Of a stretch of 20,000 nucleotides of DNA, positions 1 through 20,000 are shown piece after piece. Numbering within the stretch: position 1 is the stretch's first letter; every line of letters begins with the position of its first letter. The position numbers and the translations under genes were made by a program. Below the pieces are notes generated by a model that saw only the letters and a list, made by a program, of their open reading frames with translations, had not been told where the DNA came from and did not search any database. This DNA comes from an uncultured virus (IMG/VR IMGVR_UViG_3300028809_000684). Taxonomy: Duplodnaviria; Heunggongvirae; Uroviricota; Caudoviricetes. The stretch lies in the IMG/VR virus record IMGVR_UViG_3300028809_000684. One strand, given 5' to 3'.

Positions 1-372
1 GCCGCCGGATCGCATGCCCGGCAGATCATTGTTCGCGAAGCGGACCGTTGAGAATGGCCCCTCGACACGTCGGTCCTTGACGTCGACCTTGTCCCAGAAA
101 GCGACCTGGAATCGCGTGGACCTCTCCTGCGGCGATGCGAACGCCGGCGAGGTCAGCTGGTTCACGAGGTGCTCGGCGTGCTGGGCGAGCCAACCGTTGC
201 ACAGTCGGTGAAGCGCGTTCGGAGTTTCCAGCAGCACGGCCTCCATCACTCCGGGTGTGACGTGGTCCCGCATCAGGTGGTAGATGAACGCGACCAGCGG
301 CGGGTACTCCACCTCCAGCCCGCCAGAGGCAGCCACCAGCTTTTCACGGGAATCAGTTCTCGTCAGCGTCAT
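1..372 (-). CDS. Hypothetical phage-type protein, 3'-truncated by window edge (MTLTRTDSREKLVAASGG...LVAFIYHLMRDHVTPGVME...CNGWLAQHAEHLVNQL...)
   Basis: Not in the ORF track; translated by hand. ATG at 372 overlaps the end of the upstream gene and the frame stays open to position 1. The LxxFxYxLMRDH..G..E / NGWLA pattern resembles conserved phage hypotheticals. Confidence 0.7.
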   Translation of the reverse strand, partial: MTLTRTDSREKLVAASGGLEVEYPPLVAFIYHLMRDHVTPGVMEAVLLETPNALHRLCNGWLAQHAEHLVNQLTSPAFASPQERSTRFQVAFWDKVDVKDRRVEGPFSTVRFANNDLPGMRSGG

Positions 373-652
373 CGTCTTCCTCGGTTTCGTCGAGTTCTTC
401 CAGGTCCGCTTCCAGCTCTTGCAACTCCTCCCCGATCTCTTCGGCGTAGTTCTCCTCGACTGAGAACAGCAGCGTATGGATCGAAAACTCACCGTTACGA
501 TGAGCGAGGTGGCACAAGTCGACCATCAGATCCGTGATGGCACTCATGGGATCCGCGGTCAGCACTGAGGGGTGATCCCCGCAGGCTTTCACGAATGTTT
601 CGAGCGCTTCCTGCGCCCAGTCAGCCCGTTGGTCGTTCGTGGGCGTTGTCAT
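353..652 (-). CDS. Hypothetical protein with acidic C-terminal tail (99 aa)
   Basis: ATGA overlap with the upstream gene. Has an N..RA.WA..AL and DL..DL.H pattern, and the tail EELDETEEDDDADEN. Confidence 0.8.
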   Translation of the reverse strand: MTTPTNDQRADWAQEALETFVKACGDHPSVLTADPMSAITDLMVDLCHLAHRNGEFSIHTLLFSVEENYAEEIGEELQELEADLEELDETEEDDDADEN

Positions 653-1095
653 GATGGCTTCTCGGGAGCAGGAATCGGTTCAAGCCGAGTCCGCTCGATG
701 AACTTTTTCGCGGCGGACGCCAACGCGTTCCACTGCTCAGTGCTGACCTGGACTTTCGTCCAACCGTCTGCCCCGGGGTGACTCATACTTTCAGCCAGAA
801 CTCCAGCCACCCGCCGCACGATCTGGATCGCCTGGTGGGCATCGGAAAGATCGTCATACTGCGGTCGGAACTGCTGTACGGCGAGATCGTCTTCCCACCG
901 GTCGTCGAACATCTGCATGATGTCGTACTGCACGGTCCCCATCCGTTCGAACAGTTCTCGCAGGTGGAATGCGAGTCTGGCACGCTCTGAAGCGTAGGTC
1001 GTAGGTGGGGACAGTTCTTTGACGACCTCTCTGATCAGGTCGGCGCCGGCGCAGGCCTCCGCTACCCGAGCCAGCAATTTAGTTGCCAGGGCCAC
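649..1095 (-). CDS. Hypothetical helical protein (148 aa)
   Basis: GTG start preceded by AAAGGAGG; coupled to the downstream gene. Confidence 0.75.
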   Translation of the reverse strand: MALATKLLARVAEACAGADLIREVVKELSPPTTYASERARLAFHLRELFERMGTVQYDIMQMFDDRWEDDLAVQQFRPQYDDLSDAHQAIQIVRRVAGVLAESMSHPGADGWTKVQVSTEQWNALASAAKKFIERTRLEPIPAPEKPS

Positions 1096-1110
1096 GTGGC
1101 CCTCCTTTCA

Positions 1111-1434
1111 TTAGGGTCGGACTGCCGTCTCTCCTGTTTCGCCGGTCCGGATACGGATCGCCTCTTCCAGGTTGCTCACCCAGATGAGTCCGTCTCCAGT
1201 CTTACCGGTCCTGGCCTTTGCGATCGCTGCGACGGCCGCGTCGACCTCGCTGTCCAGGACCACGATGTCGAGCTTCAGCTTCGGCAGGAAGTCGGCGCAA
1301 AAGTCCTTCGGGTTTTGCTTCCGACCGATTCCACGAGCCTCGGTCACCGTCATCGCGTGGATGCCGGCTTCGAGAAGTGCTTGCTGGACATCCGACAGCT
1401 TGTAGTGGCGGATGACCGCTTCGATCTTCTTCAC
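1111..1434 (-). CDS. glnB: P-II family nitrogen regulatory protein (GlnB/GlnK-like), atypical T-loop
   Basis: Motifs MKKIEAVIR, MTVTE.RG.GR, DFLPK, TGKTGDG and RIRTGE are present. GAGGAG RBS precedes the GTG start. Confidence 0.93.
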   Translation of the reverse strand: MKKIEAVIRHYKLSDVQQALLEAGIHAMTVTEARGIGRKQNPKDFCADFLPKLKLDIVVLDSEVDAAVAAIAKARTGKTGDGLIWVSNLEEAIRIRTGETGETAVRP

Positions 1435-1445
1435 GTCGATTCTCC

Positions 1446-1916
1446 TCAGACGACCTTGTGCTGGCGGTACACGACCGCCATGTCGACATGGCGGTCAGAC
1501 TCTGGAAGCCGATATCTGCAGGTCTTCGGTTCCGCGGTGAGGTCATAACCTTCTGAGGTTCCGTGGCGAAGCAACCACTTAATCCGGGCAACGGCCGCGT
1601 TCCGATTTGCACAGCCGGCCTGCATCAGGAACAGAAAGGACGCGAGCTGCCCGTTCAATCCAAGATGCGCGGCCGCTGCATCAAACACTCCACGTTGGCG
1701 GGCGTGGATGTCGTCACCGTGCAGATCAAACAAAATGCACGCGTGCCCAGCAACACACGCAGTTGTCCCGCAGTTGTAGACTGCACCCTTCGTGCCTTTC
1801 TTCGCCTGGAACTTCCGCTCGGCTATCGAGCGCCCGAAGTAGATCTTGTAGTTGAACTTCTCGGGCGGAGATTCCAGCAGGTACTTCATCAACCTTCGCA
1901 AACGACCCTTTCGCAT
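1446..1916 (-). CDS. Hypothetical phage-type protein with CGTTACVAGHA motif (156 aa)
   Basis: GAGGAG RBS. The CGTxACxAG motif followed by A...LGL....A..LF is recurrent in phage hypotheticals. Confidence 0.8.
   Translation of the reverse strand: MRKGRLRRLMKYLLESPPEKFNYKIYFGRSIAERKFQAKKGTKGAVYNCGTTACVAGHACILFDLHGDDIHARQRGVFDAAAAHLGLNGQLASFLFLMQAGCANRNAAVARIKWLLRHGTSEGYDLTAEPKTCRYRLPESDRHVDMAVVYRQHKVV
1473..1496. repeat. Perfect 24-bp palindrome GACCGCCATGTCGACATGGCGGTC
   Basis: Read directly; the sequence is its own reverse complement. It lies about 40 bp upstream of the P-II start. Confidence 0.95.
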
Positions 1917-1918
1917 GA

Positions 1919-2200
1919 TTACTCCTCAGATCGGGTTAGAAGGGATTTGTGGAAGCGAACTTCCTCGTCGGGCAGTGCATCGGGAACGAGATACCCGTGC
2001 TCCCAGACCTTTTTGCCGTGGCTGTCTGCGAACATGACGCCGAAGCAACCTGGCCGGTTGAGTCGATGTCCGGTCAGCGGATTCCAGCCGATGATGATGT
2101 AGTCTCGGTATGCGGAATTGGCGTACGGGGTCCGCGTGTAGGTGAACAGCTCCCCGTTCCGCATCTGCATCAGGATCGGAATTCGCTGGTGTGCGACCAT
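1919..2200 (-). CDS. Hypothetical protein (about 93 aa, start uncertain)
   Basis: C-terminal part of track ORF 1919..2365, trimmed to avoid overlap with the upstream gene. Its end contains the RBS of the next gene. Confidence 0.6.
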   Translation of the reverse strand: MVAHQRIPILMQMRNGELFTYTRTPYANSAYRDYIIIGWNPLTGHRLNRPGCFGVMFADSHGKKVWEHGYLVPDALPDEEVRFHKSLLTRSEE

Positions 2201-2261
2201 CCGTGTGACCGTGAAACTCCTCGCGGAGATCCTCGGGAGCTTGGATAGGGGCGTTGAGTCG

Positions 2262-2453
2262 TCAGCCACTCTTGTCCTCCACGACGAGGGTCTCGTTGCC
2301 TTTCGGCTCGCCCTCATCGACCCAGCCGATGCCGACCCAACGGAGGCGTTTGCCTCCGGCGACAACTACCTGCGGCAGGTCCTTGCTGTTGGTGAACTCC
2401 AGCCGTTTGAGGCGGGAGTATTCGATGGTCTTCCGTGGCTTCTTTTTAGCCAT
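2262..2453 (-). CDS. Small hypothetical protein (63 aa, RWVGIGWVDEG motif)
   Basis: GGAG RBS; overlaps the stop of the upstream gene. Confidence 0.7.
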   Translation of the reverse strand: MAKKKPRKTIEYSRLKRLEFTNSKDLPQVVVAGGKRLRWVGIGWVDEGEPKGNETLVVEDKSG

Positions 2454-2835
2454 CACAATCTCCCGGGTTGAACTGGTTGAGCGGGATCATCGGATAGTGC
2501 GTGACCCCGAGAGCCTTCAGAGCGTAGAGGCGATGGTAGCCGTCTCGCAGCAGGCCACGCAGGCAGTCGATGATCAGCGGCGGGAACTGGCAGCCACGAG
2601 CCATCGCAACCACGTACTCCGCAGCTTTCTTGTAGTCCTCACTGGACCAGCAGGCGCCGCTGCTGCGGTCGTCGTTGCACAGATCGTCCCACTCGTCCCA
2701 GTGGTCTGAGATGGGGCGGAGCCACACCTGAATGACCTGGTCAGGCCGAAATCCTCGTCTGACCAGGTCGGTGAGCAGCACCTGCATGTCAGCCGGCAGG
2801 CTGTCGAAGCGAATCCGGAATGGCGGACCGCCCAC
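2446..2835 (-). CDS. ParB/Sulfiredoxin-like N-terminal domain protein (stand-alone)
   Basis: FPPLIID...LLRDGYHRLYALKALG matches the ParB/Srx catalytic motif (P.I......l.DG.HR..A...LG). No HTH follows. Confidence 0.75.
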   Translation of the reverse strand: MGGPPFRIRFDSLPADMQVLLTDLVRRGFRPDQVIQVWLRPISDHWDEWDDLCNDDRSSGACWSSEDYKKAAEYVVAMARGCQFPPLIIDCLRGLLRDGYHRLYALKALGVTHYPMIPLNQFNPGDCDG

Positions 2836-2836
2836 G

Positions 2837-3487
2837 TCAGTTCTGCGGCGTGAACGAGTCGGGATCGGCATCGAACGCCTTCTTGTCCACGATGTCGCCG
2901 TGTGGTGTTCGAACGAGGTTCATGGCAGCCAACTCGGCATCTGAGAGGTGAGGCGCCTGGGCTGGAACGATGTCCTCCGGCCGAGCCGGCATCTGGGGAT
3001 TGTCCGGCAGCCCCACCGCCCGTAGCTGATCGTTGGACGGGTCCACGTAGTCGCGATAGTACCACGTGAAGGTGAGGCGGATTGCTCCAGCCTCCTGTCG
3101 CTCTGCCTCGATCGTAGGCATGGTCAAGAATCGCTGACCGTCCGAGATCAGGTTCTCGCGGATGAAGTCGCCGACCGCCGTCTCCATCGCCAGTTCGACC
3201 GAGTTGGAAAGAAGCACTGCGGTGTAGAAGGCCACCCGCTTCTTGATGTTTCCTGGGGCGCTGCTGGTCGCCATGACGATCGGCATGACGCTGTGGACCC
3301 TCGGGTACGGCGCACCGTTGACGTACTTGGTGACGAACCAGAAGTGCTCGACGGGCTGCTTGGTCCCGACTGGCTCCAGCATGAGCTTTCCAAGCTGCTC
3401 CATCAGGAGCTTCATGGCGAACTGCAGCAGGATGATACCGCCCATTCTCGACTGGGCCTCGTCGATTCCGAATCTCGTAGTGGTCAT
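2837..3487 (-). CDS. Hypothetical protein (about 216 aa)
   Basis: Long ORF with GC3-biased codons; ATG lies just downstream of the recurrent upstream element. Confidence 0.75.
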   Translation of the reverse strand: MTTTRFGIDEAQSRMGGIILLQFAMKLLMEQLGKLMLEPVGTKQPVEHFWFVTKYVNGAPYPRVHSVMPIVMATSSAPGNIKKRVAFYTAVLLSNSVELAMETAVGDFIRENLISDGQRFLTMPTIEAERQEAGAIRLTFTWYYRDYVDPSNDQLRAVGLPDNPQMPARPEDIVPAQAPHLSDAELAAMNLVRTPHGDIVDKKAFDADPDSFTPQN

Positions 3488-3491
3488 TGTG

Positions 3492-3512
3492 TTCAATGCG
3501 CGGGTATTGGAA
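3492..3512 (-). promoter_or_regulatory. Recurrent upstream element, copy 1 (TTCCAATACCCGCGCATTGAA on minus strand)
   Basis: Near-identical to 11097-11116 and 16146-16165; intergenic and directly before an ATG. Confidence 0.6.
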
Positions 3513-3535
3513 TTGGGGATCGGGAATTGGGAATT

Positions 3536-4006
3536 TCAGCCAGTGTGGTCCGGATGCGGGTAGGCCGCGATCGACTCCAGCTGCTGCGGCGTCGGCACAG
3601 GGCGGAATCGCCAGCCCCACGAGAAGCCCAGATCCATCGTTTCTGGGCTGGCCCGGGTCACGCGGATCCGCGGCAGGCAGGCCAGACCCACAAGGCCGCT
3701 CTTCTCGCCAGGGTCGCCGGCCAGTGTGAAGCGCTTGTAGATCTCACGCAGGGCGAGGTAAGTCTGATCCGGCTGACCGACAGCGGCCGACTGCGAGAGG
3801 TAGCCGTGCTGCAGATCACTGGGTTCCCCGGTAATCGCCAGCACCTGCGGAGTGACCAGGTAGATGCGTGGGCAAGGCTCAATCGAGCTCGCCAGCAGGA
3901 AGTACAGCGCCGTCAGATCCTTGGATTGATCCAGGTCGACGCCGGCTGCGTTGCGATGGAGGCGAACAGCCTCCTTGTGGAGCATTTCGTACTGCTCATC
4001 CGTCAC
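3536..4006 (-). CDS. Hypothetical protein (about 156 aa)
   Basis: GAGGAG RBS before the GTG at 4006, within track ORF 3536..4135. Confidence 0.7.
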   Translation of the reverse strand: MTDEQYEMLHKEAVRLHRNAAGVDLDQSKDLTALYFLLASSIEPCPRIYLVTPQVLAITGEPSDLQHGYLSQSAAVGQPDQTYLALREIYKRFTLAGDPGEKSGLVGLACLPRIRVTRASPETMDLGFSWGWRFRPVPTPQQLESIAAYPHPDHTG

Positions 4007-4013
4007 GGGATTC

Positions 4014-4028
4014 TCCTCGGGTATTGGA
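4014..4028 (-). promoter_or_regulatory. Recurrent upstream element, half-site fused to RBS (TCCAATACCCGAGGA)
   Basis: 14/15 identical to 6167-6181 and shares CAATACCCG with the other copies. Confidence 0.5.
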
Positions 4029-4043
4029 GTTGGTAAGTCGGAT

Positions 4044-4223
4044 CTACCAGTTTCCACCGGCAGTGCTGGCGTCGCCGAAGGAGCAGGGACCGCACATGCC
4101 CGTTGCAGGAAGCGTCGGCACACTTCCACAGACACTGCACGGTTTTGACCAGTCTGGCTTCGTCATCTCGGGCGAGAGGACTTCCGGCTCTGGCTCGTCA
4201 TTAGCATTTTCAGTATCAGACAC
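4044..4223 (-). CDS. Small Zn-finger protein (59 aa; ...PDWSKPCSVCGSVPTLPATGMCGPCSFGDASTAGGNW)
   Basis: Below the ORF-track cutoff; translated by hand. GTG at 4223, TAG at 4044-4046, two CxxC pairs, and it fills the gap between neighbours. Confidence 0.75.
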   Translation of the reverse strand: MSDTENANDEPEPEVLSPEMTKPDWSKPCSVCGSVPTLPATGMCGPCSFGDASTAGGNW

Positions 4224-4226
4224 TAC

Positions 4227-5015
4227 TCAGACCTCAGCTTCGAGAAACAGGGCGACGGCTGCCTCCTGCGCAGGCGTGATGCGCGGCACAAACCGACAGC
4301 ACCAGCACATCGAAAACTCGACTTCCAACTCATTGAACCGATTGGCCCACAGATGCGGCGTAGTCGTGAGGCTGACGAGGTCGCCATCGCCTGGATTCGT
4401 AAAAGTGAGGTAGCGAGCGTAGAGCTGGTCTACCGTCGATACGAATCGAGCAGCACTTCCGGCATCGAGCCCAATCGTAAACAGGAGCTGACCGAACTTG
4501 ATGTCGGCGGGCGGGCCAAACATGGCGATAACTTCGGCACCAGCCAGTACGGTGTTCGGCTGCTCCGCCGCGCCGTGAAAGTAGAAGTACGCAGTTTGAA
4601 CCCGCCGCTTTTCGCCGATCGGGAACGCCTTGACCTTGCCAAGGAGTTCCTCGGCGTCTGCGAGCGGCGTGAAAGTCGTATGACGGGATGCGTTTGACAC
4701 GCCAAACTTGTCCTTTCTGTTGAGATCTCGGAGGAAGGCCTGAACGTGGTAGGCCCCGCTCTGAGCGCTAGCCGCAAAGGCATCGACCGGTAGACCGTAG
4801 ATGTGCTGCCGCAGCCGCACAGCAACGAGACCCCGGCACTTTTCGATGAAGCTCTTCTGCAATGGGCCTTCGCTGTGCTGTCCGGCGCGGGCCAAAACGT
4901 CCTCCGCCAGGCCGGCGTCGAACATGGGGAGATCGCCTGCCATCTTACGGAGTTCGTAGTGCGGGCAGTTGCTGAAGATGTTTGGCAGCTTCGGTATGTC
5001 AGTTGGTCTTTTCAC
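4227..5015 (-). CDS. Hypothetical protein (262 aa)
   Basis: Long minus-strand ORF that tiles with its neighbours; no family recognised. Confidence 0.75.
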   Translation of the reverse strand: MKRPTDIPKLPNIFSNCPHYELRKMAGDLPMFDAGLAEDVLARAGQHSEGPLQKSFIEKCRGLVAVRLRQHIYGLPVDAFAASAQSGAYHVQAFLRDLNRKDKFGVSNASRHTTFTPLADAEELLGKVKAFPIGEKRRVQTAYFYFHGAAEQPNTVLAGAEVIAMFGPPADIKFGQLLFTIGLDAGSAARFVSTVDQLYARYLTFTNPGDGDLVSLTTTPHLWANRFNELEVEFSMCWCCRFVPRITPAQEAAVALFLEAEV

Positions 5016-5024
5016 AGCGTCTTT

Positions 5025-5192
5025 TCAACTCCAGATACCGATGGCAAAGAGAGCGAAGAAGAACAGCAGCACCCACTCGTACCAGCTCCAGCCCCACCGC
5101 TCCCGGTCGCAGTGCAGGCAGACGTAGCGAAGCGGAACGGGAAAGCGAGCCGGGCAGTGCGGGTTGTTTCGGTTGCAGCGTTTGCAGTGCAT
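5025..5192 (-). CDS. Small Cys-rich protein with C-terminal transmembrane segment (about 55 aa)
   Basis: CKRC...CLHC followed by hydrophobic WVLLFFFALFAIGIW. Confidence 0.6.
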   Translation of the reverse strand: MHCKRCNRNNPHCPARFPVPLRYVCLHCDRERWGWSWYEWVLLFFFALFAIGIWS

Positions 5193-5205
5193 CAGGTTTC
5201 CTGGG

Positions 5206-5649
5206 TCAGTAGTCGCCGGCAACACGGTACGGGAAGACGTGCGACTTGACCGTCTTCAAGACATTCGGCTGCATCTCGATCCACTCGATGTGCCAGCGCC
5301 GCTCGGGCGCCGCATCTGGATCGTCGGTGTGCTCCTCGAATTCCACGATCCGGATCGACTGAGTGGAGTTAGTGACCGATTTGATCACCTGCCGTCTGAG
5401 GTACGGATACGGCTCCTCGCCGGTGTCGCGCTGTGTTGTTCCGAAGATCGCACCGCGCAGAACCGGCAGAGCCCGTCCTAATTCCGCGTGATCCCACAGA
5501 GCTTTCAACGCTTTGTCGATATCCGCCGTCCCTCGACGCGACTGGCGAACTCCGACAGCCGCGACCAGCCAAGCCACAATCTCCAGACCCTTGGCCGCTT
5601 CTTCCATCCGTTGTCTATGCGCCGGGTTCGTTTCTTCGGTTGCGCTCAT
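5206..5649 (-). CDS. Hypothetical protein, paralog of 5646..6158
   Basis: Shared blocks LWDHAELGRALPVLRGAIFG, SVTNST, WHIE and FPY. Confidence 0.8.
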   Translation of the reverse strand: MSATEETNPAHRQRMEEAAKGLEIVAWLVAAVGVRQSRRGTADIDKALKALWDHAELGRALPVLRGAIFGTTQRDTGEEPYPYLRRQVIKSVTNSTQSIRIVEFEEHTDDPDAAPERRWHIEWIEMQPNVLKTVKSHVFPYRVAGDY

Positions 5650-6158
5650 GATCCGGTGACTTCCTTTCTGAGACGCTTGTAAGGGAATGCGTAGGCGGAC
5701 ACGACACGCAGATCCTCGTCGCGATCGACCACGCTCTCAATCCGCCATTCTTTGTGCTTGAAGACCTGGCCCAGAATCACCGTCTCGACCTGCCGCATGC
5801 GAAGGGTCTTGGTCGAGTTCACCACGGAGGTATTGTCCGCGTACCAGAGGATCGGAGACTCCGTTTGGCCGGCCAGCAGGAGTTCTGGAATCTCGTAAAC
5901 CCCGAAGATCGGCCCTATGAGCACAGGGAGTGCCAGCCCCTCAGAGGCGTGTTCCCAGAGCCGGTTCAGCCATTTGTCCACATCCGCATCCGCCCACGAG
6001 CTATTCAGCTGCTTGACAAACAGGCCACCCAGCAAAGCTCTGACGTATCCCAGCGCAAGGCGGGCGTCCTCTGTTTCTTTGCTCGTCTGCTCGCTGGGCG
6101 CCGGTTTCCGCGGCTCCCGATCAAACGCGGAACCGGCACTTCCTGGTCCGTCACCCAT
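5646..6158 (-). CDS. Hypothetical protein, paralog of 5206..5649
   Basis: Shared blocks LWEHASEGLALPVLIGPIFG, SVVNST, WRIE and FPY; GAGGA RBS; ATGA overlap. Confidence 0.8.
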   Translation of the reverse strand: MGDGPGSAGSAFDREPRKPAPSEQTSKETEDARLALGYVRALLGGLFVKQLNSSWADADVDKWLNRLWEHASEGLALPVLIGPIFGVYEIPELLLAGQTESPILWYADNTSVVNSTKTLRMRQVETVILGQVFKHKEWRIESVVDRDEDLRVVSAYAFPYKRLRKEVTGS

Positions 6159-6166
6159 GTTCGTTG

Positions 6167-6181
6167 TCCTCGTGTATTGGA
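6167..6181 (-). promoter_or_regulatory. Recurrent upstream element, half-site fused to RBS (TCCAATACACGAGGA)
   Basis: 14/15 identical to 4014-4028; lies between a terminator-like hairpin and the next ATG. Confidence 0.5.
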
Positions 6182-6197
6182 ATCAGCCCTGGCCCGG

Positions 6198-6237
6198 AAA
6201 AGGTGAATGAGTGTCGGGGTTGCCTGACTCATTCACC
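6198..6237 (-). terminator. Probable intrinsic terminator
   Basis: 11-bp perfect stem GGTGAATGAGT/ACTCATTCACC (6202-6212, 6227-6237) followed by TTTT on the minus strand. Confidence 0.7.
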
Positions 6238-6302
6238 CTCCCCGCGCCATTTTGCATCACTCTCCCACGCTCCGCCCAGAGGGGCGCAATCGCACGGGAT
6301 GG

Positions 6303-6470
6303 TCAAATTCGGCGTTTCACACTACGCCAGCGAACAAGGGCCGCATCGTGCTCCCGTGACCAGAAGTAGGCAATAATCCACGCCAGCATCAGAAACCGTG
6401 TTTTGCACGTCTTCTGTGGATACGGGCAGATATCGCCGTACCACGTGTGTTTGCTCACCTCGTAGTACAC
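6303..6470 (-). CDS. Small hypothetical protein (about 55 aa)
   Basis: AGGAAGGAG RBS before GTG; part of track ORF 6303..6503. Confidence 0.5.
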   Translation of the reverse strand: MYYEVSKHTWYGDICPYPQKTCKTRFLMLAWIIAYFWSREHDAALVRWRSVKRRI

Positions 6471-6493
6471 ATTCACTCCTTCCTGCGTTGTCT

Positions 6494-6601
6494 TCAGACG
6501 CATCCCTGGTTTCGCATTTCTCTCTCAGGAGTTCTTTCGCCCGTAATCCGCCTGATCTCTCGTTGTTGGCGGGCTTCACGTTCCAATTCTCCCCACGTCA
6601 C
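6494..6601 (-). CDS. Possible 35-aa peptide (MTWGELEREARQQREIRRITGERTPEREMRNQGCV)
   Basis: Strong GGAGGTG RBS before the GTG at 6601; translated by hand. Confidence 0.4.
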   Translation of the reverse strand: MTWGELEREARQQREIRRITGERTPEREMRNQGCV

Positions 6602-6617
6602 TTCGCATCACCTCCTC

Positions 6618-7271
6618 TCACGGCCCCAGCAATCTCTCCAGGGCTTGTAGATCCGCAATCGCGTTCTGGCATTCCGTATCGTTCGAGTCTTCCTCCATGA
6701 CCGCGTACTGCTCTGTTTCCAGCGCAGCAATCTCATCCTTGATCGTGTTCACTGCAGCATTCTTCTGCGCAATGAGGGCGTCAATGCGTGTCAGCTTCTC
6801 TTTTCGCACTTGGGCTCGGCTCGCAATCGTCTCCAATCGGGCGAGTTTCTCCGACAGGGACAGCTTTGGTGGCTCAGGCTCTGGGGTAGCTGCCTCCAGC
6901 GTCTCTGGTTCCTCGTTCGGTGGCAGAAGTTTGTCGTCGTACCGCTCGAAGTGCATGTGGATGTCTCGGGCGTCCCATTCCTTGAAGTCCCCGATGATCA
7001 GGGCTTCATAGATTCCGCCGTTGTCCATTCCATCCGGCCTGAGCAGGACAATGATGGCGTTTCGTTGGTACGGGCGCAGCCTCACTTCCCCTGGTGGGAG
7101 GCCCGACTTCACTCGCCGCGAGATCCGCACCGAATAAGAGCCTGGCGGAGCATCCCGCTCCTGGAGAAAGTCCAGAACCTGCTCCCGGTAGGGATTCCAG
7201 TTCTTCAGAATGAGGTTCCCGGTCTCGAACTTAGAGATCCGGTGCTGGCTTTGGGCCTTGGTGACGTTCAT
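6618..7271 (-). CDS. Hypothetical protein with C-terminal coiled coil (about 217 aa)
   Basis: GGGAGG RBS before ATG 7271; heptad-like C-terminus (LTRIDALIAQKNAAVNTIKDEIAALE). Confidence 0.8.
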   Translation of the reverse strand: MNVTKAQSQHRISKFETGNLILKNWNPYREQVLDFLQERDAPPGSYSVRISRRVKSGLPPGEVRLRPYQRNAIIVLLRPDGMDNGGIYEALIIGDFKEWDARDIHMHFERYDDKLLPPNEEPETLEAATPEPEPPKLSLSEKLARLETIASRAQVRKEKLTRIDALIAQKNAAVNTIKDEIAALETEQYAVMEEDSNDTECQNAIADLQALERLLGP

Positions 7272-13011: not shown

Positions 13012-13587
13012 CTAGACAACAAGGCCATCAGTTTCAGGCAGCATCCATCCCCGAGGTTCAGCCAGGATCTGATCCATGTCCCAGACCTCTTCAATGCCTG
13101 CCTGATGCCGCTTCAGCAAGCGGTCGTAGAGCAGAAGATACACTGCCGCGGCCAGGTTCGTACAGTGCCGCGTGGGGATCACGACAAAGCGGTGACAGTG
13201 CCTAGTTTCGACCTTGTCGAGGCTTCCATCCTCCGGGCCGAACACGTAGACCGGATTCTCCGGATGCTCGAACGAGGTCAGCAGCTCGCTGCCCTGTCTG
13301 AGCTCCACAGCGACCGGTGTGGCCCCTGGAAACTGCTCGAAGGGATAATCGTGTTGCCGAAGCTCCACGCTCTTGTAGCCCTTCATACGCTCTTCTCGCG
13401 GCAGCCGCTGGCCCTTGGCGGGGTCCAGGCTGACACGGTCCCCAGTGAACCAAACCTGGTTCACACCAAAGCAGGCTGCAGCACGCACCGCAGCCCCGAC
13501 GTTGTGGGCGTACTTGGGCCGGCACAAGACGATTGCCGGCGCCGTTCCTTGGGGCTTCATCCCCTTGCCATATTGAGCTGTCTGCAT
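13012..13587 (-). CDS. SPOUT-class (SpoU/TrmH family) RNA methyltransferase
   Basis: Motif 1 IVL..PK..HNVGAAVRAAACFG, motif 2 YVFGPEDGSL, motif 3 VVIP...CTNLAAAVYLLLYDR. Confidence 0.9.
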   Translation of the reverse strand: MQTAQYGKGMKPQGTAPAIVLCRPKYAHNVGAAVRAAACFGVNQVWFTGDRVSLDPAKGQRLPREERMKGYKSVELRQHDYPFEQFPGATPVAVELRQGSELLTSFEHPENPVYVFGPEDGSLDKVETRHCHRFVVIPTRHCTNLAAAVYLLLYDRLLKRHQAGIEEVWDMDQILAEPRGWMLPETDGLVV

Positions 13588-17797: not shown

Positions 17798-18616
17798 TTA
17801 CGGTCGACTGAGACGCGCAATCACAGGCACCTTCCAGAGCCACGGAGAGGGATGCTGGAAGGTGTCGGTCGTCGCGACCGTGTCGTACATACTCAGCGCG
17901 TCGAGGCCTTTGGAGAAGATTCCGTGGGCCACAAACAGGGCTGTTGATCTGGCGCCGGCGAGCCGCGGATGAAGCATCTTGAAGGTTGCTCCACCATCGC
18001 AGATGTCGTCCACAACGAGGACGTGCAGACCAGTGGCATCAACAGGCTTGTCGTCAACGCCGCGGATCTCCTTGTAGACGAGAGATCCGGTCGACGGATC
18101 TCGCGACTTCTCGCCGTACCAGACGTGAAAAGAGGGAACACGAACCGCCGCTTCCTGCTGACTGCGAAGGAAGGCTCCCTTATCCGGCAACAGGATGACC
18201 GTATCTTCGCTTGGCCAGCCCAGGCGCTGCAGGAGAGTGTCGACCTCGGGCCACATCGAAACGTTCTCAAGATTGTCGATCTCAGCGAACGCTGCCGCAC
18301 TGTGGGCCTCGTAGGTACGCACGCGGGAGTAACCGAGCTCGTTGATCAGCCGGCCGAACACGCGTAGCGAGAACGGCGACAGCTTCTCAGGGTCAGTCAC
18401 ACGATCCTGCCGGCCGTACGGTAGATAAGGGAGAACGAGAGTCCTCGGCTGCATACCGTTCCGCTTGAGGACGTCTGTCGCAAGGAGCAGATTCATCAGC
18501 GCGGAACTGGATCGAATGTCGGCCAGGAGAAACCCGTCGTTCTCCATGCCGGCTTGCAGCACAACATGCTGCTCCCCGGCGGAGAAGGTCAGCGTCTTAA
18601 AACTGGACAGAAGCAT
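17798..18616 (-). CDS. prs: Ribose-phosphate pyrophosphokinase-like protein (probable NARP1 ADPR-PP synthetase, Adps)
   Basis: Motifs FSAGE, LPYLPYGRQDR, EAHS, PDKGA, KSRD, VLVVDDICDGGATF and HGIFS. AAGGA RBS before ATG 18616; overlaps the Nampt-like gene by 20 bp. Confidence 0.92.
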   Translation of the reverse strand: MLLSSFKTLTFSAGEQHVVLQAGMENDGFLLADIRSSSALMNLLLATDVLKRNGMQPRTLVLPYLPYGRQDRVTDPEKLSPFSLRVFGRLINELGYSRVRTYEAHSAAAFAEIDNLENVSMWPEVDTLLQRLGWPSEDTVILLPDKGAFLRSQQEAAVRVPSFHVWYGEKSRDPSTGSLVYKEIRGVDDKPVDATGLHVLVVDDICDGGATFKMLHPRLAGARSTALFVAHGIFSKGLDALSMYDTVATTDTFQHPSPWLWKVPVIARLSRP

Positions 18617-20000
18617 GGAAGTTCCTTCGCACTTCGTCGAACGTGTAGCGCCGCAGGATCTGCCCGTTTCGGAAAACAGGCATGAGTTCGCTGGGCGCGT
18701 CGGGCGGTGCCGAGTCGTAGGTGACCCCGGCGCGGAGAGCGACCCGGCCAACATGGCTCTTCTTGCCAGAGTCGGTGATCGGGTCCTTGAAGATGTTGAC
18801 GTTGCGACCGTTCCGCGTGATCTGCGTGGCCTTGATCGCCATCCCCAGAGTGTCCCGCGTGCCGGCCCGGAGCAGACCACCAGCTCCGATGACGATATTC
18901 GATCCGTCGTACCCAGAGCCGACAGAGCGAATCAGCGTCTCCTCGTACCGCTGATGGTACATCCCGTCCCCGTAGATCAGCCCGATCTTCGGATTCAAGA
19001 TACGGTACGGACTGTCGGCCAGCCGCTCGCTGCCGAACAACTCGTCCAACAGGACCAGCACACCCTTGGCCTCCGGCGTACCTGGCTCAGCCTTGGCATC
19101 ACCGCAGATGATGTCCGGCGGGTAACCGCTATCGGGACGGATGATGACCCGACCGTTACGGGCAAGGATCTTGTCCTTCAGCCGCGGCAGAATGTTCGTA
19201 CAGACGTGCCAGATCGAGTAGGTGTCCGAGACGATGGAAACGTAGCCGTCCGGATACAACTCCAGCATCCGCTCGAACGCCTCGAACTCGAACTCGCGAC
19301 CGTAGGAGCACATGACAGAGTGCTCGGAGGCGGGCACAGACATCATGCACGGCGATTCCGTTGGGAGGCTGTAGTACTCCTCAATGAACGGCTCGGCCAC
19401 GATCGTGTCGCTGCCGCGGAACACGATGAGATGCGCTGCGCCGGAGATTGCCGCTGACTCCTCAGACGTGTCGCTCCGGTAGCCGAAGTCGTGCACGTTG
19501 AATTCCAGAGGCTGTCGCGAGTAGCGACGAGCGATTCGGTAATACTCCAGACTGTTTGTCGCGACGGTGCAGGGATACCACACCTTCAGCAGCAACGATT
19601 CCAGAAAGCCCGGCGCCCACGGGAAGTCGTCGTGCGTCGACTCCAGCGTGAGCAGGGCATTCTTCACCGGCAGGACGGTGCCCTCAGGCACGGCGCTGAT
19701 CTCGACAGGCCACTGACCGAGGTCAGCGATGCCGTGGAGCTTCTCCTTGATGTCGTCGCTCGGCTCGGACCCGAGGATCCGCCGACGCCGCTTGAGGAAG
19801 TCCTCGACGTTGGCCGTCGTGATGGGCTGAGTCAAGTACTCCATCAGGTAGTACTGCAAGCCGAAGAACAGGAGCTCCTCGAAGTACTTGTCGCTTCGGG
19901 CGTTCAGATACGAAATCACCCGGGTGGTCCCGGGTGCGTACTGTTCCATGTGGCCCATCTTGTAGACGTCAGTCCGCAGAAGCGGGTGAACTAGCTTCAT
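18597..20000 (-). CDS. nadV: Nicotinamide phosphoribosyltransferase-like protein (probable NARP1 Namat)
   Basis: Motifs TDVYKMGH, HDFGYR, PASEHSVM, SIVSDTY, IRPDSG, LIYGDG, RDT, KAT and KDPITDSGKKS. ATG lies at the window edge. Confidence 0.95.
   Translation of the reverse strand: MKLVHPLLRTDVYKMGHMEQYAPGTTRVISYLNARSDKYFEELLFFGLQYYLMEYLTQPITTANVEDFLKRRRRILGSEPSDDIKEKLHGIADLGQWPVEISAVPEGTVLPVKNALLTLESTHDDFPWAPGFLESLLLKVWYPCTVATNSLEYYRIARRYSRQPLEFNVHDFGYRSDTSEESAAISGAAHLIVFRGSDTIVAEPFIEEYYSLPTESPCMMSVPASEHSVMCSYGREFEFEAFERMLELYPDGYVSIVSDTYSIWHVCTNILPRLKDKILARNGRVIIRPDSGYPPDIICGDAKAEPGTPEAKGVLVLLDELFGSERLADSPYRILNPKIGLIYGDGMYHQRYEETLIRSVGSGYDGSNIVIGAGGLLRAGTRDTLGMAIKATQITRNGRNVNIFKDPITDSGKKSHVGRVALRAGVTYDSAPPDAPSELMPVFRNGQILRRYTFDEVRRNFHASVQF

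Follow-up and report, generated by a model that had tools for sequence, protein, structure and literature searches.

Why would a phage carry a P-II gene whose signalling loop has been shortened and rewritten, and what could such a protein do in an infected cell? P-II proteins are among the most widespread sensors of metabolic status, and in model bacteria they control nitrogen assimilation, UMP and NAD metabolism and fatty-acid synthesis. To our knowledge, no viral P-II has a demonstrated function. The gene considered here encodes 107 amino acids between a GTG start and a TAA stop and lies at 1111..1434 on the minus strand of the 20,000-nucleotide stretch of viral DNA that was analysed (the window). 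The first-pass annotation had proposed that its product is a decoy of host nitrogen control, blind to the usual signals. The reading favoured here, to which we assign a probability of about 0.5, is that of a host-derived P-II that is not uridylylated by GlnD, is probably unresponsive to 2-oxoglutarate (2-OG), and acts constitutively or interferes during infection. Judged from the sequence, a decoy is one among several mechanisms that fit equally well.

The phage protein is a member of the P-II family. Its PF00543 score is 85.8 bits (cut-off 25), with residues 1–99 aligned to positions 1–102 of the 102-position profile, and matches no other Pfam family. The AF2 model (mean pLDDT 84.2, pTM 0.76) has the beta-alpha-beta-beta-alpha-beta order of a ferredoxin-like fold, and strand segments 28–35, 54–65 and 91–106 are near-identical to the consensus of 136 comparators. 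All of the top 50 Foldseek matches in the PDB are canonical P-II proteins (probability 1.00, TM 0.72–0.79); PDB 4aff and 2xbp are among the fold matches. The BFVD fold search returned weak ferredoxin-fold matches only (TM ≤0.51, identity ≤18%), and the sole PHROGs match is phrog_28307, of unknown function. The protein falls below the cut-offs of the equivalog models for GlnB (NF008111, 96.3 versus 202 bits) and GlnK (NF007946, 87.1 versus 181 bits). So does P0002 from Planctomicrobium sp. SH664, a genuine P-II of a planctomycete (153.6 and 144.3 bits, respectively), and a test this narrow carries little weight. A Shine-Dalgarno-like GAGGAG, read directly from the sequence (1442..1447, minus strand), lies 7 nt before the GTG and shares bases with the upstream gene's stop codon. 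The codon-usage log-odds of the P-II gene is +23.3 under a model trained on ORFs of the same phage.

The remodelled, shortened T-loop comprises residues 36–47 (IGRKQNPKDFCA), encoded at 1294..1329 on the minus strand. A 6-residue deletion with Phe at the Tyr51 position had been described by the first-pass annotation, and both features were recovered with MAFFT and HMMER. The deletion is a single gap, which MAFFT places at canonical positions 44–49 and HMMER, in alignment with solved P-II chains, one residue earlier. In the MAFFT alignment it forms an 18-nt in-frame gap between the codons of K43 (1306–1308) and D44 (1303–1305). The loop apex residues Glu44, Tyr46, Arg47 and Gly48 are absent from the phage protein in these alignments, and the equivalents of Gly35 and Lys58 delimit a span of 17 residues. 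Phe45 (codon at 1300..1302, minus strand) stands opposite Tyr51 in both alignments, at a position occupied by Tyr in 136/136 comparators. Gln39, likewise present in all 136, is replaced by Lys39 (1318..1320, minus strand). In the B-loop, which reads TGKTGDG, canonical Lys90 is replaced by Leu83 (1186..1188, minus strand); Lys is found here in 99% of the 136 comparators and Leu in none. This lysine after Gly-Asp-Gly is presumably part of the PROSITE C-terminal signature of GlnB/GlnK. Q39K, G41N, G27A and K90L (GDGKIF to GDGLIW) had all been listed earlier and are all present in the alignment, in which K58, the B-loop glycines (G84/G87/G89) and RIRTGE are intact, again as described. Other changes in the MAFFT alignment are F36I, K40Q, H42P, E50D, I86T and F92W, a 1-residue gap in helix 2 and a 2-residue C-terminal extension; Thr86 is found in 2 of the 136 comparators. 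The AF2 model predicts disorder in the new loop, with a pLDDT of <50 at residues 37–39 and 43–47.

In canonical P-II, Tyr51 is the site of uridylylation by GlnD (PMC11617674), and the Mg2+ bridging ATP and 2-OG has Gln39 as its sole protein ligand (PMC3198391, PMC8395244). Lys90 is salt-bridged to the ATP beta-phosphate and the backbone of Gly41 contacts 2-OG (PMC8395244). Of the side chains listed for the Mg-ATP/2-OG complex (PMC8395244), Arg9, Lys58, Arg101 and Arg103 are kept in the phage protein, Gln39 has become Lys and Lys90 has become Leu; Gly41 is Asn. Eight of 11 ligand-contact positions are kept (Arg9, Thr29, Lys58, Val64, Gly87, Arg101, Arg103 and an aromatic residue at 92), and adenine-nucleotide sensing may therefore survive. 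The earlier claim that modification and sensing residues had been lost thus stands for the Tyr51 site and for several effector contacts, which are replaced within a conserved body; with most contact positions in place, the protein may be less than fully blind to ATP, ADP and 2-OG. In addition, a Gln at position 40, directly after the replaced Gln39, could stand in for it in a flexible loop, as far as the alignment can indicate.

These retained residues bear on whether the gene is simply an ordinary auxiliary copy, sensing ATP, ADP and 2-OG while adding to host P-II dosage. Such a protein would be expected to keep Lys58, Arg101, Arg103, the B-loop glycines and Arg9, as this one does, and to exceed the PF00543 threshold widely; motif-intact viral P-II proteins are on record, and all 26 other copies found on viral contigs are full-length. 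However, Gln39, Gly41, His42, Glu44, Tyr46, Arg47, Gly48, Glu50, Tyr51 and Lys90, each present in 99–100% of the 136 comparators, are lost, and the GlnB-model score drops from 153.6 bits in the planctomycete P-II to 96.3 bits in the phage protein. We regard ordinary P-II function as improbable.

The distribution of the changes separates remodelling of the loop from decay of the whole gene. Columns at least 95% identical among the 136 comparators were taken as conserved, which gives 39, and the phage protein differs at 13 of them (27, 36, 39, 41, 42, 44, 46, 47, 48, 50, 51, 62 and 90). Ten of the 12 conserved columns in positions 36–53 are changed, versus 3 of 27 elsewhere (Fisher p = 2.4e-5), and this concentration in the T-loop region makes general decay unlikely. 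Eight other long-branch P-II sequences show 0–1 changed loop columns. Of the 67 variable columns outside the loop, the phage protein departs from the majority residue at 21, and each of these eight controls does so at more (25–44). The change in the P-II protein, at the level of sequence, is focal and goes beyond chance.

A focal pattern is as compatible with relaxed selection on the loop alone as with adaptation. Either the body would still be needed, for instance as a nucleotide-binding trimer, or nothing would be, the loop would have drifted and shrunk, and the host would feel little or no effect. The predicted disorder of the new loop is what such drift might leave behind. The frame, though, is intact after 0.57 changes per column on the terminal branch, and the deletion is itself in frame. 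Outside the loop the protein retains 24 of the 27 conserved columns, and its body has diverged no more than that of ordinary P-II proteins. G27A and K90L, two of the three conserved-column changes outside the loop, both map to the nucleotide cleft instead of being scattered. A good ribosome-binding site precedes the gene, whose codon usage is phage-like. Loop drift on its own is judged unlikely.

Relatives were sought in viral_contigs, metagenome_contigs, genome_contigs, 5.8 billion clustered proteins and 1.84 billion representatives, and viral_contigs was scanned twice, with the phage protein alone and then with an alignment. The scan with the protein alone gave three weak partial matches, over residues 59–94. 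The 6-residue deletion is absent from 26 viral-contig loci, 150 cluster representatives and 16 GenBank phage records; the first-pass annotation had suggested looking in viral databases for homologs with the same deletion, and these viral loci and phage records supplied none. It is equally absent from 160 metagenome and genome loci (the best 80 of 494 and the best 80 of 531 relatives). The Gly35–Lys58 span is 22–24 residues in the 26 other viral-contig loci and 23 in all 160 metagenome and genome loci from those best 80 of 494 and best 80 of 531. No relative of between 64% and 99% identity occurs among the matches kept from all scans, and the phage P-II is known from one near-clonal lineage (clustered proteins, contigs). 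By sequence comparison its loop is unique among the P-II proteins examined.

Sporadic natural loop variants do occur in metagenomes, on contigs of 1–234 kb. In P0213 (110 aa) the loop is shorter by 3 residues and position 90 is Leu, while Gln39 and Tyr51 are kept; P0155 is without Gln39 and Tyr51, and P0196 has Met at 90. They resemble the phage P-II in this respect but have neither its 6-residue deletion nor its loop sequence. P0213 and P0155 were not found in viral_contigs, where the search gave only more full-length viral P-II genes. The existence of such rewired loops elsewhere, and the restriction of this one to a single lineage with no relative sharing the change, are in keeping with loop-confined drift.

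The P-II gene is located in a phage genome. The record that carries it is a soil virus of 229,210 bp (CheckV 100%). It encodes a large terminase and baseplate J, along with a PolA-UDG fusion, ThyX, ligase, a multisubunit RNA polymerase and seven tRNAs; what had been described as a phage-like region is thus a phage genome. The gene lies 20 kb inside the record, flanked on both sides by phage hallmark genes, and 242 of the 249 ORFs of the record share one strand. Contamination by host DNA is rejected by these flanking genes, by the common strand and by the matching codon usage. The identical protein is found on 4 + 3 contigs of different sources, including an independent assembly of 229,285 bp, and the loop codons are covered without difference by contigs of two further soil runs (X3 record 1; X5 record 18, window 1252–1402). 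An assembly or sequencing error behind the deletion is dismissed on the basis of these seven contigs and two runs, and the probability that any such artefact accounts for the gene is negligible. Contigs of four soil runs show one difference in the 1,801 bases covered, at window position 964, outside the P-II gene. Among the 7 runs listed for the sequence, none is of RNA.

The immediate setting is a long run of small same-strand ORFans. The upstream neighbour (1446..1916, minus strand, 156 aa) ends 11 nt before the P-II start and matches phrog_889, of unknown function (E 4.2e-8); it has no Pfam family and no relative in viral_contigs. The downstream neighbour (649..1095, minus strand, 148 aa) starts 15 nt past the P-II stop with its own AAGGAGG, and has no Pfam, PHROG or PADLOC match and no relative in viral_contigs. 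PADLOC gave no match for the P-II gene or for seven neighbours. A promoter scan of window positions 1–7000 gave no sigma-70-like site, and terminator-like sites were no more frequent there than chance would give. Neither an ammonium transporter (PF00909) nor a glutamine synthetase was found when the full 229-kb record was searched in six frames, which bears out the description of the gene as a stand-alone P-II lacking an amtB or glnA neighbour; the amtB linkage of GlnK-type genes is absent. A nicotinamide phosphoribosyltransferase gene and a PRPP-synthetase-like gene lie ~17 kb from the P-II gene. Genes of these two kinds form part of phage NAD-restoring counter-defence.

By sequence, the phage P-II is of planctomycete type by descent. 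Its closest named matches are Planctomycetota, at 54–59% identity (clustered proteins and the best 80 of 531 genome_contigs relatives), and its identity to bona fide P-II proteins is 55–64%. The phylogeny that the first-pass annotation had called for, along with the PF00543 alignment given above, places it in a clade of 92 sequences, supported at 99, that holds all seven Planctomycetota-named ones, on a terminal branch 0.57 changes per column long. The planctomycete-like N-terminus that had been recognised earlier is indeed shared: P0002 starts with the same 13 residues. The phage itself encodes a DUF1559/N-methyl protein, of a family typical of planctomycetes, and the host of the 229-kb phage is probably a member of the Planctomycetota. 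In all five planctomycete genomes checked, a gene matching TIGR01693 (GlnD; four over the cut-off) lies 156–337 nt from a P-II gene on the same strand. Since the likely host phylum has GlnD beside P-II, the loss of the tyrosine is meaningful. We know of no study of the planctomycete P-II/GlnD system. The glnD-adjacent planctomycete proteins, of GlnB type (such as P0002 and those of genomes G001, G004 and G005), have 55–66 identical residues of 105–107 with the phage protein, belong to its well-supported clade and share its N-terminal signature, strands, B-loop glycines, Lys58 and RIRTGE C-loop. In contrast, they are all 112 aa long with a full loop, Tyr51, Gln39 and Lys90, none of which the phage copy has, and they are chromosomal and linked to glnD, whereas the phage copy has no nitrogen gene beside it.

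The favoured reading of a signal-deaf, host-derived P-II can be cast as follows. The phage would have captured a host P-II gene of the glnD-adjacent type, keeping the trimer-building part and most of the nucleotide cleft while the signalling loop was rebuilt. The product probably still trimerises, is presumably not a substrate for uridylylation by GlnD, and would fail to enter the Mg-ATP/2-OG complex through which P-II normally lets go of its targets. With neither uridylylation nor this complex, it would behave permanently as an unmodified P-II at low 2-OG. One possibility is constitutive binding to targets for which the loop is not needed, as seen for laboratory loop-deletion mutants with DraG, UmpH and NAGK; the other is that it mixes into host trimers and leaves them with fewer working loops. 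P-II paralogues are reported to form heterotrimers (van Heeswijk 2000, cited in PMC5448240). Either way, the carbon, nitrogen and nucleotide metabolism of the infected cell would be uncoupled from its real nitrogen status.

Engineered proteins provide the nearest parallels. GlnZ-delta42-54 of A. brasilense has been solved with DraG (5ovo) and also binds UmpH in a complex that is no longer regulated by 2-OG (PMC11617674), and PII-deltaT-loop of S. elongatus forms an encounter complex with NAGK (bioRxiv 10.64898/2026.08.10.743959). As described in these sources, such mutants combine a trimer body, a truncated loop and body or B-loop target binding that is deaf to effectors, which is the behaviour proposed here for the phage protein. 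They differ in being engineered, with 13 residues removed and a wild-type nucleotide cleft, whereas the phage P-II is natural, lacks 6 residues, and has the remaining loop rewritten and Gln39, Lys90, Gly27 and Ile86 changed. A second parallel is the I86N variant of S. elongatus PII, in which the loop is compact and NAGK binding is reported to be constitutive and 2-OG-insensitive (PMC6908673; PDB 4aff and 2xbp). Both proteins are substituted at B-loop position 86 (Asn versus Thr), but I86N has a full-length loop with Tyr51, Gln39 and Lys90 intact, contrary to the phage P-II. The phage protein is a natural counterpart of such mutants, which were made so that target binding could be studied apart from signal sensing. 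If stable and trimeric, it would offer a direct test of whether a phage profits from freezing P-II signalling in one state, supply a ready-made dominant "signal-deaf" P-II for planctomycetes, and show which P-II parts are dispensable to a virus. Its value is that of a well-defined, cheap-to-test case; it opens no new field.

A job outside nitrogen control has also to be weighed, in which the short, stiffer loop and the altered phosphate-binding cleft would fit the trimer for another adenosine ligand or a phage partner, for instance to bind, sequester or cleave a defence nucleotide. Phage SAM and SAM-AMP lyases are described as P-II-fold trimers with short T-loops of 10–12 residues. Their adenosine ligand occupies the same cleft between subunits, the loop has a catalytic Glu at its C-terminal end, and a Gln is conserved in the B-loop (PMC12255297). 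The phage P-II loop, compared here with the published description of the lyases, has ~13 residues and ends in Asp44 and Asp48, acidic like the lyase residue but not Glu, and the TGKTGDG B-loop is without the Gln. The lost Lys90 is a phosphate ligand, and the same-strand ORFan run, with the nicotinamide phosphoribosyltransferase and PRPP-synthetase-like genes ~17 kb off, would suit a gene of this sort. For the lyases, however, no more than a fold-level kinship is described, and the phage protein stands close to true P-II proteins in sequence (55–64% identity, no other Pfam family, canonical P-II throughout the top 50 PDB matches). It also keeps the phosphate and 2-OG binders Arg101, Arg103 and Lys58 and has no PADLOC match. 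A function of this kind is considered unlikely. The more specific version, in which the sensor has been turned into a counter-defence or takeover tool and has stopped reading ATP/2-OG, has a slim chance of being right. Through its shortened loop and altered phosphate pocket such a tool would bind, sequester or process a different adenosine-based molecule, for example a SAM-type compound or a second messenger of defence. It would repeat the route of the SAM and SAM-AMP lyases, here from a recent and recognisable P-II ancestor.

Viral P-II genes, including a clade without the tyrosine, were already published in 2016. The ocean virome genes of Roux et al. (2016; bioRxiv 10.1101/053090) are reported to have been acquired repeatedly from different host phyla; three of four clades keep both conserved motifs and two adjoin an ammonium transporter. 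Clade P-II-3 is without the conserved Tyr, and its function was called ambiguous by the authors. The portion of that text available to us makes no mention of loop shortening or of the loss of Gln39 or Lys90. The hosts given there are Bacteroidetes, Proteobacteria and possibly Verrucomicrobia, as opposed to a soil habitat and, probably, Planctomycetota in the present case. Common to the ocean genes and to the phage described here is the presence of P-II on a bona fide viral genome.

The phage P-II gene (window 1111-1434, minus strand) comprises 107 codons from a GTG start in the ORF listing. In the sequence, a GAGGAG motif that shares bases with the stop codon of the preceding gene lies 7 bases 5' of this start, and 15 bases separate the P-II stop from the following gene, which has its own AAGGAGG. 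The phage protein covers the whole PF00543 profile in the Pfam search, with a score of 85.8 bits (cut-off 25), and matches 41 distinct solved P-II chains (HMMER, best E = 3e-26). AlphaFold2, run on an alignment of 58 sequences, gave a model (mean pLDDT 84.2) with the P-II order of strands and helices, in which pLDDT is below 50 solely at loop residues 37-39 and 43-47. When this model was compared with the PDB by Foldseek, the top 50 matches were all P-II proteins. The codon-usage score of the gene, from an ORF model trained on the phage's codon usage, is phage-like (+23.3).

The first-pass annotation had described a 6-residue deletion in the T-loop and a Phe at the position of Tyr51 (canonical numbering). 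Indeed, a single 6-residue gap is required by both MAFFT and HMMER, and Phe45 (the phage protein's own numbering) faces Tyr51 in both alignments. The substitutions G27A, Q39K, G41N and K90L that it had read were confirmed against 136 comparators, namely the 119 nearest database proteins (from 5.8 billion clustered proteins) and 17 viral-contig copies, as was the retention of Lys58, the B-loop glycines and RIRTGE. Arg9, Thr29, Arg101 and Arg103 are likewise retained in this alignment, which adds F36I, H42P and E50D to the changes. I86T and F92W are also present; Thr at 86 and Trp at 92 occur in 2/136 and 10/136 comparators, respectively. Helix 2 has a 1-residue gap, and the C-terminus is longer by 2 residues. 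At 39 columns the comparators are at least 95% conserved, and the phage protein deviates at 13 of these (canonical positions 27, 36, 39, 41, 42, 44, 46, 47, 48, 50, 51, 62 and 90). That the protein is an ordinary working P-II is improbable, as ten residues of 99-100% conservation have been lost.

The altered conserved columns are concentrated at positions 36-53, with 10 of 12 changed versus 3 of 27 elsewhere (Fisher p = 2.4e-5). In eight further rows with long branches, taken as controls, the corresponding changes number 0-1 (of 12-13 loop columns) and 0-3 (of 27-28 columns elsewhere). Outside the loop, 67 columns vary, and at 21 of these the phage protein departs from the majority residue, against 25-44 in each control, so the body evolves as that of any working P-II does, and the long branch is almost entirely due to the loop. 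Two of the three outside-loop changes, G27A and K90L, fall in the nucleotide cleft. Judged by this alignment, the signalling loop and the effector pocket are focally rebuilt. The focal changes, the intact frame, an in-frame 18-base gap, the ribosome-binding site and the phage-like codon usage argue against a dying gene. The focal pattern fits adaptive remodelling and relaxed selection on the loop alone, and does not separate the two; drift of a loop no longer needed is regarded as rather unlikely. A sister lineage for dN/dS comparison was not found in the protein and contig databases searched.

Loop length was gauged as the residue span from the Gly35 to the Lys58 equivalents, which is 17 in the phage protein. 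All 26 other viral-contig P-II loci have a span of 22-24 and Lys at position 90. The span is 23 in each of the 160 best-matching loci of metagenome and species-genome contigs, with canonical residues throughout in 159 and Cys at 51 in the remaining one. Of the 150 best of 1.84 billion cluster representatives (50% identity), 142 show the canonical pattern throughout; among the exceptions P0213 comes nearest, its loop being 3 residues short and its position 90 Leu, but it retains Gln39 and Tyr51. The GenBank phage records with a P-II (16/16) all encode one of canonical length. The 6-residue deletion is absent from these 26, 160, 150 and 16 entries, and the phage P-II has no counterpart among the few hundred close or viral P-II proteins compared.

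In the 5.8 billion clustered proteins, nothing but the phage's own cluster exceeds 64% identity. The next-nearest matches are 112-aa P-II proteins, several of them named Planctomycetaceae, Planctomicrobium or Lacunimicrobium, and 7 of the 9 best loci among species genomes belong to Planctomycetota. A maximum-likelihood tree of 137 rows places the phage protein, on an end branch of 0.57 (median 0.047), within a 92-row clade (SH-aLRT 99) that includes 7/7 rows named Planctomycetota and 0/4 named otherwise; the tree is short (112 columns) and supports membership of the clade, not a place within it. The resemblance of the N-terminus to planctomycete GlnB, noted in the first-pass annotation, is confirmed by P0002 of Planctomicrobium sp., whose first 13 residues are identical. 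Another phage gene, at L035:8964-10205 (minus strand; L026 and L032-L035 are pieces of the same 229,210-base virus record), codes for a DUF1559 protein (PF07596, E = 9.4e-46) that bears a prepilin-type methylation motif at its N-terminus, an odd cargo for a phage. This family is typical of planctomycetes and greatly expanded in them, and offers a clue to the host. From the P-II ancestry and the DUF1559 protein together, a planctomycete is the likely host.

GlnD uridylyltransferase is present in all five planctomycete genomes (G001-G005) reached via P-II loci; four of the GlnDs pass the TIGR01693 cut-off, and the fifth scores 510 versus 519 bits. Every one of the five has one to three tandem P-II genes immediately followed by glnD (e.g., G001:C6:123566-127625), on the same strand and at a distance of 156-337 bases. 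With GlnD at hand in this phylum, the loss of the Tyr is meaningful. Of the P-II proteins of these genomes, the glnD-adjacent copies are closest to the phage protein, with at most 66 identical residues. Full-length loops are found in all ten P-II proteins read from the five genomes. In one of three tandem G001 paralogues the full-length loop is rewired, with Gln39 replaced by Ala, and Lys58 and Lys90 by Arg.

The identical protein is recorded on four contigs of one source and three of others, the longest being 229,210 and 229,285 bases, and seven soil metagenome runs contain all or part of the stretch. A contig of one soil run spans window 600-2400 with a sole difference at 964, outside the P-II gene, and a 151-base contig of another run matches window 1252-1402 exactly, loop codons included. 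The same protein on several contigs and the independent-run contigs across the loop codons rule out an artefact, the chance of which is negligible.

The window corresponds to bases 19,686-39,685 of the 229,210-base record, which CheckV rates as complete. ORF calling trained on codon usage predicted 249 genes, which occupy 83% of the record and of which 242 lie on the minus strand; Pfam scans took in 220 of the 249 ORFs and the window's larger ORFs. The Pfam hallmark genes are those of a large tailed phage, in agreement with the phage-like region claimed previously. They include large terminase, baseplate J and a collagen-repeat fibre; a 1,362-aa fusion of uracil-DNA glycosylase, 3'-5' exonuclease and DNA polymerase A (L026:7058-11146, minus), a RecA-like protein, an SbcCD-like pair and a ligase; ThyX, dCTP deaminase and dCMP deaminase; and fused multisubunit RNA polymerase subunits, with beta-like and beta'-like domains in one 1,486-aa protein (L032:8518-12978, minus). 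A caspase-family peptidase (PF00656) is encoded at L033:8802-9605 (minus). The P-II gene lies in a long stretch of small same-strand ORFs without known families, and a SpoU-family RNA methyltransferase gene (PF00588, 55.4 bits; window 13012-13587, minus) also sits amid small ORFans. The description of the P-II as stand-alone was upheld: a six-frame search of the whole 229,210-base record revealed neither an ammonium transporter nor a glutamine synthetase. The P-II gene is genuine and intact, is carried by a phage and has planctomycete ancestry.

In the accessible text of PMC3198391, the Mg2+ bridging the ATP phosphates and 2-oxoglutarate (2-OG) has Gln39 as its sole protein ligand; Gln39 pairs with Lys58 in the ADP state, and the loop-tip Arg47 inserts into the Amt channel. 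The accessible text of PMC8395244 gives as ATP ligands Thr29, residue 38, Gln39, Gly87, Lys90 (through a salt bridge to the beta-phosphate), Val64, Arg101 and Arg103, with Phe92 stacking on adenine, and as 2-OG ligands the backbone of Gln39 and Gly41 plus Arg9 and Lys58. There, a C-terminal tag that disturbs Lys90 abolishes 2-OG binding; the phage protein has K90L plus a 2-residue C-terminal extension. Tyr51 is the GlnD modification site (PMC11617674, accessible part).

The most likely mechanism, at a probability of about one half, is that of a permanently signalling P-II that GlnD cannot mark, each step of which we infer. The protein would fold and trimerise as P-II does and would be unmarkable by GlnD. 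With Gln39 lost and the phosphate pocket altered, it would fail to assemble the Mg-ATP/2-OG complex by which P-II is normally released from its partners. Lacking both, it would therefore act as a permanent 'unmodified, low-2-OG' signal, either by binding loop-independent targets or by mixing into host trimers. Mixed P-II trimers containing loop-deleted subunits were reportedly the subject of work by Jiang and Ninfa in 1997. Also bearing on mixing, E. coli GlnB and GlnK are reported as in vivo heterotrimers (cited in PMC5448240, accessible part). Binding of loop-independent targets has precedents in partially accessible sources: the laboratory loop deletion GlnZ-delta42-54 was crystallised with DraG (5ovo) and binds the UMP phosphatase UmpH in a complex deaf to 2-OG (PMC11617674), and PII-deltaT-loop forms an effector-independent encounter complex with NAGK. 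In the I86N variant, one B-loop change suffices for constitutive target binding (PMC6908673, accessible part); the phage protein has Thr at this position.

That the protein has acquired a new ligand or partner outside nitrogen control is unlikely. This reading is best argued from SAM and SAM-AMP lyases, known phage members of the P-II superfamily with 10-12-residue loops (PMC12255297, accessible part), but the phage protein is near true P-II in sequence and keeps the phosphate-binding arginines.

As for the permanently signalling P-II, UMP breakdown and NAD synthesis are also under P-II control in model organisms (PMC11617674, accessible part) and, speculatively, such control would suit a phage with its own nucleotide and NAD-salvage genes. 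A nicotinamide/nicotinate phosphoribosyltransferase with a NAMPT_N domain (window 18597-20000, minus; NF006629, 439.7 bits, cut-off 405) is overlapped, by frame, by a ribose-phosphate diphosphokinase-like ORF (window 17798-18880, minus; TIGR01251, 99.6 bits, below the cut-off of 113), and a Nudix gene lies elsewhere in the phage genome (L034:9586-10062). Together these look like a phage NAD-salvage set. Such sets counter NAD-depleting defence.

Viral P-II genes were described from ocean viromes in 2016, on ten contigs and in four clades, two of them beside amt (bioRxiv 10.1101/053090, accessible part), and the phage P-II belongs with these auxiliary genes, a kind already described. One ocean-virome clade is without the conserved Tyr, as is the phage P-II, and its function was called 'ambiguous' in the same text. 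No description of a phage P-II with a shortened loop was found in the accessible literature searched, mostly outside subscription journals. The interest of the phage P-II is as a natural, directly testable analogue of laboratory loop-deletion mutants, with a predicted role.

Other unusual P-II proteins were encountered. In the metagenome protein P0155, position 39 is Glu and Tyr51 is absent; P0273, a member of its cluster, is on a 233,823-bp contig. P0192, also from a metagenome, consists of two P-II units in tandem, each with GDGL(I/A)W, and lacks RIRTGE. Seven loci on IMG/VR contigs of 22-129 kb (L211-L217) represent a second, distant viral-contig type with Glu at 39 and Arg at 58; two of these copies (L212 and L216) are on one 128,733-bp contig.

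Elsewhere in the phage, two adjacent unassigned ORFs (window 5206-5649 and 5646-6158, both minus) look paralogous by eye, with a common ...LW.HA..G.ALPVL.G.IFG... stretch. Seven tRNA genes (Gln, Glu, Ser, Leu, Tyr, Trp and Phe) are clustered at L034:3999-5470 (minus). A separate tRNA with anticodon TCA (L035:19545-19619, minus), labelled SeC by ARAGORN, may act as a UGA suppressor. A Ro60/TROVE protein (PF05731 and PF25045) is encoded at L034:10115-11740 (minus). Immediately 5' of this gene, on its strand, Rfam gives a tRNA match of 138 nt (L034:11883-12020, 31.9 bits; no ARAGORN call), a candidate for a Y-RNA-like RNA that includes a tRNA-like domain.
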